Shown here piece by piece: positions 54,104-58,101 of a DNA stretch of 64,000 nucleotides. The notes beneath the pieces were generated by a model. It saw only the letters and a list, made by a program, of their open reading frames with translations, did no database searches and was not told the DNA's origin. The DNA lies in contig NW_026262670.1 in assembly GCF_021869535.1 (NCBI RefSeq), positions 2,418,001 through 2,482,000 on the forward strand. The letters are read 5' to 3'. Both the position numbers and the translations under genes were made by a program. Numbering within the stretch: position 1 is the first letter of the stretch; the number at the start of each line of letters is the position of its first letter. This DNA comes from Mytilus californianus. Lineage: Eukaryota.

Positions 54104-54943
54104 ATGACGTTTATCAAGATTACCGACCCTAAGCAGCGTGAGGCGCTCGCAAAGGAGTTGCATGAAACTAAGCGGAGCATTCAAGCCAGCAACATGCAAC
54201 ATCGTCTCGACAAGATTGGACTCAGCCGAGATCTTTCCAGGGTGTTCAAGCCTGTGGTTGAGGCTCAGCGGGAAGCAGCTTCAAAAATCACCAAAACAAT
54301 CGAAGATTTACCTGCAGCAGTGCCAGCCCTCCCTCCTCCACCGCCCGAGTTTGCTGATCCACTACCCATCGCACCACCTACAGACACCGTCCTCGGACCT
54401 CGAGCACAGCAGTATTTGCAGCTCAGTATGACTCCTTCCGCCGACCACACCTTTGGATTGCGATCTGAAAACGATGGTATCTTCATCGGAAGCTCACCAG
54501 TTACTTTTGACGATGATGATATTTTCGTGGATGGTGTGAGGTACAAAGGAACCCTTGGCCTCTGGGAACTCATGGTGAATAAGAAACCAGAATCGTTTGA
54601 GCCCGACGACCTTTACGACTATGCAGAGATCCTGAAAAGTTCCGGTGCCATGTATCAAGGCAATTCCACCCTCTCGAGAACCCCGAAGGCGAATAAGAGT
54701 TACAAGTGGAAGGAAATCGTATCCCACATCTACAAGAAGGATAAGTTTGGCAGTGGGCTGCAAACCGTGTTTCTTCCTTCCAACTTCAAGCAGCTTCTCG
54801 ATCGCTTGGAACTGTGTGCTGCAGCATACCGAGCAGGAAACAATGGTGTGCGCAACGAAATTGTGTCGATTATCGATGCTATGAAAAGGGGTAGACATAT
54901 CAGCATCGAGGAATATAAGGCACTGCATCGTAGCATCCTATAA
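54104..54943 (+). CDS. Conserved Polinton accessory/core protein (279 aa)
   Basis: N-terminal FIKITDPKQRE..LSRVFKPV; C-terminal GSGL..FLP..LLDRLEL....YRAGNNGVRNEIVSII block that I recognise from Polinton ORFs (not database-checked). Confidence 0.75.
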   Translation: MTFIKITDPKQREALAKELHETKRSIQASNMQHRLDKIGLSRDLSRVFKPVVEAQREAASKITKTIEDLPAAVPALPPPPPEFADPLPIAPPTDTVLGPRAQQYLQLSMTPSADHTFGLRSENDGIFIGSSPVTFDDDDIFVDGVRYKGTLGLWELMVNKKPESFEPDDLYDYAEILKSSGAMYQGNSTLSRTPKANKSYKWKEIVSHIYKKDKFGSGLQTVFLPSNFKQLLDRLELCAAAYRAGNNGVRNEIVSIIDAMKRGRHISIEEYKALHRSIL

Positions 54944-54947
54944 ATAA

Positions 54948-55295
54948 ATGTTGCAAATCAAGAAAGGTTACGCTCGAAATTACGCCTACGGTGGTAAAGG
55001 ACTGTTTGACACAATCGCCAGTTTGGCTGGACGCATGTTTACTTCCTCTGCCGCCCAAACCCTAGGAAGTAAGGCCATGAATGCTGCCACCAATGCAGCC
55101 TTGAAAGGTGTTGAAAAGGGTGCTCCCAAAGCCGTCGACCATGTGGTTGATAAAGTGACCCGCCCCAGGAAACGTATTAAAACCCCTCAACAGCCTAGTG
55201 TTCAACGCAAGAAGCCAGAGCAAGTTCGGTTAAACAATCTAATCTCCGGCTCTGGTATCAAAACCATCCACGACTTCGTCCAACGCTATAAATAA
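54948..55295 (+). CDS. Small basic protein with amphipathic helix after GGKG (candidate membrane-lytic virion protein)
   Basis: YGGKG-LFDTIASLAGRMF; ISGSG-I; flanked by junction motifs. Confidence 0.7.
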   Translation: MLQIKKGYARNYAYGGKGLFDTIASLAGRMFTSSAAQTLGSKAMNAATNAALKGVEKGAPKAVDHVVDKVTRPRKRIKTPQQPSVQRKKPEQVRLNNLISGSGIKTIHDFVQRYK

Positions 55296-55302
55296 ATACA
55301 TT

Positions 55303-56588
55303 ATGTCTAACATTCTTACAATCACCGAAGGGTTGACCTTCGACGAAAGTCTCCAGGAATATCAGGTTCGAGAATACGAACCACAAGCCGGTGCCCAGCT
55401 GAACAATCCCGGTGCTGAAATCCGAATCAACATCGAAACCCAGGATTTGTTCCTACACCCCGCCGAAAGTTATCTCGTGGTAGAAGGTCGACTTCTCAAG
55501 AATGATGACACAGCATATGCCGATGGCGATCTTGTGTCGCTCACCCATAATGGTATCATGTATCTCTTCAAGAGCATCAGTTACCGGCTTTCCGGTCAGC
55601 AGATCGAACATATTAACGACCCCGGCATTGCCACCACTATGCTGGGAATGTTAACCTACCCCGACGACTTCTCCAAATCGCAGGGTCTCAACCAACTGTG
55701 GTATAAGGATTCTTCCATCGATGCTGAGGCTGAGAACACTGGATTTGCAGCCCGCCATGGATACATTATCACCAAGCCCACCAACAAAGGATCGTTTTCG
55801 TTTGCCATCCCCCTAAAACATATTTTTGGATTCGCAGATGATTACAACAAAATAGTGTACGGGTTCAGACACGAACTCTCACTCGTTCGCGATTCAAATG
55901 CTAATGCCATTTTGAGAGCAGCTGCCGTCAACGATCCGGCAAAGATCGTCCTGAATAAACTATCGTGGTTCGTCCCTCACATCACCCCCTCAGACGAAAA
56001 TAAGATGCAACTGTACAAAACCATCCAAATTAATCCAAGATCCACTGTGGATTTCGCATGAGACAGTGTGATTCCATAGCCGTTCCCCAAGCCTCACAGT
56101 TTAACTGGCGCCTAGCTGCCAAGAGTGGTCGCGAAAAGCCTAGATATATCATTGTTGCCTTCCAAACCGACAAAAGTGGTGACCAAACCCATAATGCTGC
56201 CGTGTTCGATCACTGTCGATTGCGAAATATCCATGTCACCCTCAACGCTGAACGTTATCCAGCAGTCGACTATAATGCAGCTTTCAACGAAAATAGGATC
56301 GCCAGAGTGTTCAAAGAGGCCTCCGACTTCAGAAAGAAATTCCATAACATGGACAGTCTCCTCAGTAATGGTGGGATTAATCCCTCCGATTTCATCGACT
56401 TGTACCCCTTGTTTGTGATTGATGTGAGTCATCAGTCTGAGCGTCTCAAAGAATCCACGGTGGATATTCAGATCCGAGCAGAATTCGCCCGCAATGTTCC
56501 AGCCAACACCGAGGCGTTTGCACTTGTCATTTCCGACAGAATCCTACAGTTTGAATCCGATGGTCAAAAGATGAACGTTGTGTACTAA
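55303..56588 (+). pseudogene. Major capsid protein (double jelly-roll type), split by one frameshift near 56030
   Basis: EYEPQAGAQLNNPG..FSFAIPLKHIFGFADDYNK..GFRMRQCD..KPRYIIVAFQT..YPLFVIDVSHQSE. Confidence 0.9.
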
Positions 56589-56594
56589 AAGTAA

Positions 56595-56744
56595 ATGGAT
56601 AAAATTCACCTACAACTCCTCTTTGCCAGTCACCCCGCCGAAGTCTATGCGATCGTAGTGAAGGCTAGTAAACAACTCAAGGAGCAGTATGACGGTATCG
56701 AAGAGTGGAAGCAAAAATATGTGACAATGGTCTACCATAAATAA
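56595..56744 (+). CDS. 49-aa micro-ORF absent from the ORF track
   Basis: MDKIHLQLLFASHPAEVYAIVVKASKQLKEQYDGIEEWKQKYVTMVYHK*; fills the MCP-penton gap exactly, bounded by TAAAAGTAAATG and TAAATAAATG. Confidence 0.6.
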   Translation: MDKIHLQLLFASHPAEVYAIVVKASKQLKEQYDGIEEWKQKYVTMVYHK

Positions 56745-57514
56745 ATGGACAACACATTGTTGCAGCAAATTGTCGATAATACCGACCCAAAGCATGGGTT
56801 TTCCTTCATCATCTCTGGAAACGATAGCCAAATCCTTACCCGGTTGAACCCCCCACTACAACTCAAGGAATCTAAGACCTACGAAATGGCATTAGTAAAC
56901 CTGGAAACCTATAACTCCATCCCCAACATTCATACAGGTAACAATTCCTTCCGCTACTCCCCCGACGATGGTGCCAACTGGTTTCCCATCGCACTAAGCA
57001 CAGGTTCCTATGACATCGAAGACTCAACAATGAGATCCAGCGGCGGCTGCGGCTCAACAAACACAAAACGAAGATCATCATCGATGCCAACCGGGCGACC
57101 CTAAGAGCAACGCTGACCCTCGCCAGACACTATCAAGTAGACTTCAACGTTGTCAATAGCATCAACACCGTCTTGGGATTCGAGCGGCAGATTTACACGT
57201 TCGATATGATCACAAACGGCTATACGGAAGGGGAACACATTGTAAATATCATCAGCATCAACAGCATTCTGGTGAATAGTGATATCATCCATGGAAGTTA
57301 TGTAAATGGTACACAGCAGTCTACCATCTACAGCTTTTTTCCCGCAGACGGTCCTGGTATGAAGATCATTCAAACCCCAAAGAATCTAGTATACTTGCCG
57401 GTGACCTTGCGAACCATCAATCGCATGCAAACGTATCTCACCGATCAAGATGGTAGGCCCATCGATTTCAGGGGTGAACATCTCACCATCCGCTTTCATC
57501 TTCGTGAGGTATAA
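56745..57514 (+). pseudogene. Minor capsid (penton-like) protein, split by a 1-nt deletion near 57021
   Basis: YEMALVNLETYNSIPNI..GSYDIED/(L)NNEIQRR..SINTVLGF..SINSILVNSDIIHGSYVNG..YSFFP..NLVYLPV..DFRGEHLTIRFHLRE. Confidence 0.88.
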
Positions 57515-57518
57515 ATAA

Positions 57519-58101
57519 ATGACTTATCACGAACATGGTTTGAGTTTGACAAAAGGTCAAGCTGATAAACTACAACGGGCTGCCAAAAAAGGTTGTCCGG
57601 TCTCCATTCGTTTGTCCCACGCAAACCTGCAAGGTGAACACAAGATGTTGCTCACCACCCGCCAGGTTCAAAAGATCGCCAAGCTCCTACAAAAGGGTAC
57701 TGGTGGTATGGTCCTAGAGTTGAGTGCGACCCAATTAAAGGAAAACATGCAGAAGGTGGGTGGCTTCCTACCCATGTTGGCGGGGCTGGCAATGAGGGCA
57801 CTCCCCATGTTAGCAAAAACCATTCTACCCGCCTTGAGTGTTGGAGCCTTGAGTGGTCTTGGTGGTGTAGCCGTCAACAAGGCCTTAGGGTCTGGATTGT
57901 ACCTGAAACGTGGTGGATGCGTTTGCACCGTGAAACCTAGTGGCAACGGTCTCTACCTCAAACCTTCAATTAAACGCCCGGATCACCTATGGTGATGGAC
58001 TCTACTTGAAGCGTGGTCAGCAATTCCACGACGGAGCTGGTCTAATCTTAGGTGCTAACAGCCCCTTCAAAAATATTCCCCTCCTCGGTATGCTCCTATA
58101 A
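57519..58101 (+). pseudogene. Adenovirus pX-like core precursor; frameshift near 57980 hides the C-terminus
   Basis: KVGG-FLPMLAGLA; GSGLYLK, GNGLYLK; +1 frame continues GDGLYLKRG..GAGLILGANSPFKNIPLLGMLL* ending at the next junction motif. Confidence 0.75.

Follow-up and report, generated by a model that had tools for sequence, protein, structure and literature searches.

Why does the same short sequence, two glycines one residue apart followed by a hydrophobic residue (G-x-G-hydrophobic), recur in four predicted proteins of a single mobile element? The element is a whole, decayed Polinton/Maverick (adintovirus) copy at 45900..62885 of a 64,000-nucleotide stretch of Mytilus californianus DNA (contig NW_026262670.1, positions 2,418,001 to 2,482,000; this whole stretch is called the window, and its numbering is used throughout), recognized by its terminal inverted repeats and gene set. 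An earlier note on the window had read the motif as a protease maturation programme across four precursors. Our analyses support that reading at the level of sequence: it survives all of the sequence tests that we ran and fits the specificity that has been measured for the most closely related enzymes studied. For the sites that lie in linkers, we consider it probable that the motif is what the element's own adenain-like cysteine protease recognizes.

The earlier note had listed ten sites, and a check of open reading frames (ORFs) and coordinates in the window found all of them in place, on the + strand at 54749, 54993, 55248, 57759, 57888, 57942, 57991 and 58033 and on the - strand at 52588-52599 and 52261-52272. 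Nine have the G-x-G-hydrophobic form, and the tenth, VGG-F, is of the GG/X form (a slash marks the predicted scissile bond). Each of the ten carries a P2 glycine together with a glycine at P1 or P1′. The P4 Met, Ile or Leu of adenain sites was found at one of the ten and is mixed in the ORF 54104 and pX-like families; the statement that P4 is not conserved thus holds at most sites and fails at both sites of ORF 54948, where P4 is hydrophobic. The four proteins (786 residues) contain nine G-x-G-[LIVFM] matches versus 1.6 expected, and none of 5000 shuffles reached nine. This window test is post hoc, the four proteins having been picked for having the motif, and the tests on sister and distant loci and on the ORF 54104 family, described below, are more independent. 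The other 13 ORF pieces of the window hold three matches in 3113 residues versus 2.2 expected. The double jelly-roll major capsid gene and the minor capsid gene (55303..57514, + strand, in pieces) are essentially motif-free and served as controls. The claim that capsid proteins contain no site was correct for the major capsid protein, whereas a piece of the minor capsid protein carries GPG-M at 57350; further matches outside the precursors are GKG-F in the ATPase and GIG-I in ORF 58106.

The same element encodes an intact, 139-residue adenain-like (clan CE) cysteine protease at 50373..50792 (+ strand). ORF 50373 has the His-Asp/Glu-Gln-Cys catalytic residues and the His-Trp motif of clan CE, and His65, Trp66, Asp80, Gln106 and Cys113 are invariant in all eight aligned sequences. 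In the PDB it comes closest to adenain (1avp, E 7e-4) and African swine fever virus pS273R (E 0.006). Adenain recognizes GX/G and GG/X forms with Met, Ile or Leu at P4 (PMC4246237). The mavirus protease MVP cuts GG/X and GX/G without adenain's P4 rule; its sites include serial ones 12-14 residues apart, it cuts the mavirus major capsid protein (MCP) serially at the C-terminus, and the mavirus integrase is packaged in virions (PMC6048507).

We next consider related elements. The sister set drew on 81 loci (L001, L003-L082), whose ORFs were de-duplicated at 85% and trimmed to the aligned range. Enrichment over shuffled sequences, the check proposed with the original reading, was positive in all four precursor families: 134 G-x-G-hydrophobic matches versus 28.9 in the pX-like family (41 ORFs), 21 versus 2.9 in the ORF 54948 family (12 ORFs), 18 versus 3.3 in PLA2 (22 ORFs) and 14 versus 5.2 in the ORF 54104 family (33 ORFs). 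The pX-like count is not independent, since the 81 loci were found through the pX-like alignment. The same comparison gave 0 versus 2.1 for MCP (18 ORFs), 1 versus 3.1 for the minor capsid protein (44), 1 versus 1.5 for the ATPase (26), 2 versus 1.5 for the protease (10), 1 versus 1.1 for the integrase (17), 0 versus 1.8 for PolB (24) and 7 versus 5.5 for the fibre (14). GG-hydrophobic by itself was not enriched. The adenain pattern was in excess in PolB (10 versus 2.3), where the window match sits in an endonuclease VII zinc finger. Nine distant loci (L083, L085-L092), found via protease or integrase and not used to define the motif, gave 34 matches versus 6.3 expected in 16 precursor-class proteins and 4 versus 7.1 in 38 capsid or enzyme proteins; these classes were set by hand from homology, with fibre, unassigned ORFs and the L083 fusion left out. 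An origin of the motif in chance or glycine-rich composition could be argued from the choice of the four proteins after the motif had been seen and from the 12% glycine of the pX-like family. Composition-preserving shuffles and the out-of-sample loci lead us to reject it, and we regard it as barely credible.

The position of the bond is best addressed in the PLA2-integrase gene, which is broken in the window (- strand): its 5′ part encodes a DUF5679 zinc finger and PLA2 (52234..52773, by Pfam), and an rve integrase with a chromodomain lies in pieces at 51321..52233 (also by Pfam). The fused precursor is real in relatives, PLA2 and rve sharing one ORF in 51 of 55 longer homologues. Both sites fall between Pfam domains, TGA/G-F (52588..52599) between the zinc finger and PLA2, and FGL/G-V (52261..52272) between PLA2 and the integrase. 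The second keeps G-x-G-hydrophobic in 47 of 53 longer homologues (P0121-P0173), many of them near-copies. The first takes the GG/X form in relatives. Its register could be parsed in 53 of 81 sequences, and among the 52 classified it was G-G-x-hydrophobic in 33 and G-x-G-hydrophobic in 14, while the first glycine was absent in 3 and neither form was present in 2; a P2 glycine with a glycine at P1 or P1′ is hence found in 47 of 52. On the tree the GG form accounts for three changes, at least two of which are forced by well-supported branches. Across this switch the first glycine and the hydrophobic fourth position are constant and the second glycine moves. Because the forms exchanged, GX/G and GG/X, are the same pair that adenain and MVP cut, we infer cleavage after the second residue. 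The earlier note had left the scissile bond unassigned; the register switch at site 1 indicates that it can be placed, as GX/G and GG/X.

Two alternatives may be considered here. One is that none of the sites is cut and that all of them share a short motif for binding, to the inside of the capsid for instance, or form a flexible hinge. The confinement of the motif to non-shell proteins, the conserved hydrophobic P2′ and the similar motif in a hydrophobic segment of ORF 58106 would suit such a role, but a binding motif or hinge does not predict an exchange of exactly GX/G and GG/X, nor the placement of sites at protease-integrase and pX-protease joints (see below), and we judge it unlikely. The other is that the sites are processed by a different enzyme, either the vOTU domain within PolB or a SUMO/ubiquitin protease of the host. 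The N-terminal part of the window PolB keeps Cys- and His-containing motifs, which we take to be vOTU motifs. Active vOTU domains in polintons have been predicted (PMC11161782). Cleavage at GX/G, however, has been described for adenain and MVP, which among studied enzymes are the nearest relatives of ORF 50373. OTU and SUMO proteases generally require a di-glycine. Cleavage by another enzyme is, in our view, highly unlikely.

A further site lies in ORF 54104 (54104..54943, + strand), a conserved 279-residue protein and candidate precursor. A PDB sequence search with its profile gave no meaningful match; in fold it resembles a bracovirus DUF8207 protein (E 8e-11). FGS/G-L (54749..54760) is predicted to lie in a low-confidence loop (pLDDT under 50 at residues 218-222) that connects helices, ahead of a C-terminal helical bundle. 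Both glycines of the site are kept in all 12 aligned proteins, amid insertions and deletions on either side. Clustering at 50% identity left 150 family representatives; the anchors on both sides of the linker were located in 108, and the other 42 were left out; these profile anchors replaced a regular-expression anchoring of the linker that had captured 30 of 150. In line with the expectation that the sites be conserved among homologues, 71 of the 108 linkers (6-115 residues) contain G-x-G-hydrophobic versus 5.4 after shuffling. Seven have a GG/X-hydrophobic site instead, 12 another GxG or GG, and 18 none, so that a P2 glycine with a glycine at P1 or P1′ is present in 90 of 108. Outside the linker there are only seven matches in 27,869 residues.

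ORF 54948 (54948..55295, + strand) encodes a basic, helical protein of 115 residues, arranged as a leader, a site, a helix and C-terminal site(s), a layout that would be pVI-like. No pVI match was found in Pfam or the PDB, and a profile search of the PDB gave no meaningful match; any likeness to pVI lies in the layout alone. The N-terminal site, GGK/G-L (54993..55004), is present in 115 of 120 homologues and a C-terminal site in 118 of 120; after de-duplication at 70% the figure is 24 of 24. P4 at the first site is Tyr, Ile, Val or Phe, that is, aromatic or aliphatic in 24 of 24 homologues. The C-terminal site, ISGS/G-I (55248..55259), has the full adenain consensus, and P4 is Leu, Ile or Met in 27 of 33 C-terminal sites.

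The remaining precursor, ORF 57519 (57519..58101, + strand), has a frame change near its 3′ end and encodes a pX (mu)-like core protein, so called from the Adeno_PX likeness of its homologues. The sites attributed to ORF 57519 are all present; YGDG-L and DGAG-L lie past the frame change and outside its frame. Database homologues are single proteins of ~192 residues with every site in frame, and the closest named one, from Mytilus coruscus, is 93% identical. Pfam Adeno_PX (PF05829) matches 15 of 45 homologues at E up to 1 (best 1.7e-6), two of which reach the cut-off; the window ORF has no match. The top PDB match of the family profile, weak at E 0.56, is adenovirus pX aligned at the GG site, with VGG/F-L (57759..57770) set against GG-F-L-P. 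Of 31 de-duplicated homologues, 30 retain GG-F-L, with P4 Lys in 10, Ile in 7 and Val in 7. In an AlphaFold2 model of homologue P0001, the confident domain stops just before GG and a low-confidence segment (residues 90-124) follows. Pfam lytic-peptide profiles start at the predicted P1′ in four pX-like homologues (residue 81 of P0026) and in P0373 (residue 19), all below the cut-off; this agrees with the placing of the bond, although at the sequence level it shows resemblance only.

The C-terminal part of the pX-like protein is less clear. Here lie four G-x-G-L-[Y/I]-L repeats (57888..58044), which could be cut sites or structural beta repeats. In the P0001 model, strands are predicted after the four repeats (residues 125-131, 144-150, 159-164 and 167-170); across the family, GxG stands ahead of a strand in 64 of 70 repeats, one repeat has the GG-x form, and P3′-P5′ is conserved as Y-L-K/G. 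These features would fit uncut structural turn-strand units or capsid-binding strands, the linker sites alone being cleaved, a real possibility that we lean mildly against. Repeat number, however, varies from 1 to 6 across homologues, and a fold search of the PDB and BFVD with the pX-like model gave no match at E up to 0.001. Moreover, at loci L087 and L089, where a protease is fused behind the pX part, no site other than the last repeat separates the two, and the mavirus MCP is serially cut at similar spacing (PMC6048507). Judging from the modelled strands that they are predicted to open, the four repeats appear to be the weakest of the sites, and we put their use as cut sites at about even.

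Fusions at other loci carry the motif at further joints. Protease and integrase form a single 503-residue ORF in L083 (2740-4251), with IVGR-G-L, a full adenain consensus, at the joint. PLA2, a pX segment and the protease share one ORF in L087 (3580-4578) and L089 (9362-10393), with sites on either side of PLA2, at KRGG and immediately ahead of the protease. The motif thus appears, by sequence, to follow joints rather than one protein context. In L086, L090 and L091, the protease is a separate ORF that follows immediately in another frame. In L085 (5986-9942), a G-x-G-L occurs at PolB residue 89, in an N-terminal extension ahead of the aligned region, and could be a leader cut.

Several observations weigh against reading these motifs as cleavage sites. 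Two GXG sites of the mavirus MCP stayed uncut in vitro (PMC6048507). The 18 ORF 54104 linkers without any site belong here too, as do the β-strands that directly follow the pX-like repeats (pLDDT about 60-79) and the x of the repeat GxG, which is mostly Ser, Asn, Asp or Lys, typical of turns. The ORF 54948 search profile held the motif itself, which inflates the conservation counts for that family, and counts of homologues are generally not independent events, since many are related. The sites had been placed at domain boundaries or before amphipathic segments: domain joints and linkers were confirmed, but the helix that follows the site in ORF 54948 does not stand out as amphipathic, 37% of windows having an equally high hydrophobic moment. 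Finally, the ORF 58106 family is enriched as well (10 versus 2.2), but within a hydrophobic segment; the motif can therefore arise for other reasons, and not every match is a cut site. ORF 58106 itself (58106-58615) is conserved, and its hydrophobic segment is rich in G-x-G-L.

If the protease does act at the linker sites, the four precursors would be packed inside the capsid, and the enzyme would cut Gly-X/Gly or Gly-Gly/X, with a hydrophobic residue next, during particle maturation. Cutting would free zinc finger, PLA2 and integrase from one polyprotein and would trim ORF 54104; the new N-termini of the pX-like and pVI-like proteins may expose hydrophobic or amphipathic helices for membrane entry. 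The specificity would be virophage-like, strict for Gly at P2 and loose at P4, with an added preference for a hydrophobic P2′. Packaging, maturation cleavage, domain release and helix exposure are each inferred steps; Polinton particles have not been observed so far, according to the sections of bioRxiv 2023.08.22.554363 consulted.

This scheme has counterparts in adenoviruses and virophages, where the principle is already established; the Polinton version is, on sequence grounds, very likely a maturation code. Adenain, the adenovirus homolog of ORF 50373, shares the GG/X and GX/G forms and acts on pVI, pVII, pX/mu, pVIII, pIIIa and pTP; internal precursors are cut and hexon and penton are not among the substrates listed, a division that the Polinton resembles by sequence (PMC4246237). 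Further likenesses are the pX-like protein with its aligned GG-F-L-P site and the pVI-like layout with N- and C-terminal sites. Unlike adenain sites, Polinton sites have P4 Met, Ile or Leu only at the C-terminal sites of ORF 54948 and often Lys at the pX site; the Polinton protease has 139 residues versus 204, and its putative substrates include an integrase fusion, which adenoviruses lack. The likeness to MVP, again in sequence, lies in GG/X and GX/G without a P4 rule and in serial sites, and mavirus integrase is found in virions; unlike MVP, which cuts the MCP C-terminus, the Polinton system has no MCP site (0 in 18 de-duplicated sister ORFs), its sites lying in separate small proteins. The pX-like domains and membrane-active accessory proteins of adintoviruses (PLA2X, GasderminX and Cupiennin) have been noted before (PMC8502044), whereas here PLA2 is joined to the integrase and the pX-like protein stands on its own. 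For adomavirus LO6, adenain motifs and a cleaved form have been suggested, and fragments of it occur in virions (bioRxiv 341131), and a mu-like protein was noted in entomopoxvirus-associated polinton-like viruses (PMC11296320). The main text of PMC8502044, as excerpted, does not contain "cleav", nor does the portion of its supplement consulted contain "cleavage", and no Polinton cleavage sites appear in the excerpts of PMC8097293, PMC11161782, PMC11071296, PMC5803895, bioRxiv 2023.08.22.554363 and 2026.10.13.758929. The literature searched, which covered few subscription papers or supplements, contained no Polinton cleavage-site map, which does not prove that none has been published. A number of conserved Polinton proteins still lack an assigned role, and a cut-site code would predict internal virion precursors and their mature ends from sequence, together with a way in which integrase and PLA2 could be packed and set free. 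In specificity, Polintons would then fall between virophages, which have no P4 rule, and adenoviruses, which have one and whose substrates include pX and pVI; this is relevant to how adenovirus maturation arose.

The PLA2-integrase gene shows a further feature. Six otherwise near-intact sister loci (L001, L010, L014, L016, L031 and L032) each show a single frame change within the gene, located at site 2 or just beyond it, versus one break in 11,143 residues elsewhere. The net shift is -1 in five of the six and +1 in L010, which contains N bases. A junction frame change is also seen in L018, L070, L071 and L077, and in the window at 52230-52275. A-runs occur at the junction in the near-intact loci; the same six loci keep 13 A/T runs of at least 7 in ORFs of at least 100 residues outside PLA2. 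In the three loci parsed (L010, L014 and L032), the first Met of the integrase frame comes after W-x-x-D-L, a motif that presumably holds the first catalytic Asp. The frame change is a candidate programmed frameshift or slippage. One scenario, which we regard as doubtful, is that integrase is delivered in a retrovirus-like manner, as the C-terminal part of a zinc finger-PLA2-integrase polyprotein that is packaged and cut at GX/G, with some lineages making it via a programmed -1 shift after the cut site and so obtaining much entry enzyme and little integrase. Against a programmed shift, L001 shifts ten codons further on, L014 lacks a canonical slippery heptamer, and many relatives are fused in frame (51 database proteins). 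Folding of three of these loci revealed no strong RNA structure on the 3′ side of the candidate slip sites (z -1.2, 0.5 and -0.1). The -1 shifts predicted in the available part of PMC11071296 concern adintovirus penton and hexon-adenain, not the PLA2-integrase junction.

The copy that carries the sites spans ~17 kb between 209-nucleotide terminal inverted repeats with AGTAGT...ACTACT ends and is flanked by a 6-bp target duplication. Terminal inverted repeats, (AGT)2 ends and a target-site duplication of 5-8 bp are the form of Polinton end set out in PMC8097293. Pfam identifies pPolB, the rve-chromodomain integrase, DUF5679-PLA2, the A32 ATPase and the double jelly-roll capsid protein. With the protease and the minor capsid gene, which was assigned via position and likeness to L001, the Polinton/adintovirus gene set of pPolB, rve integrase, A32 ATPase, protease and double jelly-roll major and minor capsid proteins is present, several genes being broken. 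Decay amounts to 6 breaks per 3092 aligned residues, the PLA2-integrase gene left out. A search of viral contigs returned few close relatives of the element.

Several minor features were also observed. Tandem arrays with units of 22 and 35/36 nucleotides lie inside the element at 53911-54080 and 58604-59108. Reverse-transcriptase-like ORFs (LINE-type, by inspection) are found at 59703-61483, between the 36-nucleotide repeat array and the right terminal repeat. The sequence AAATAAATG, mostly as TATAAATAAATG, stands upstream of eight gene starts (50373, 50793, 52757, 54104, 54948, 56745, 57519 and 58106), with 8 copies in 13 kb versus about 1 in the 46 kb upstream. This leader resembles poxvirus-type late TAAATG starts. 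The leaders in the sister loci are A-rich, yet differ from that of the window.

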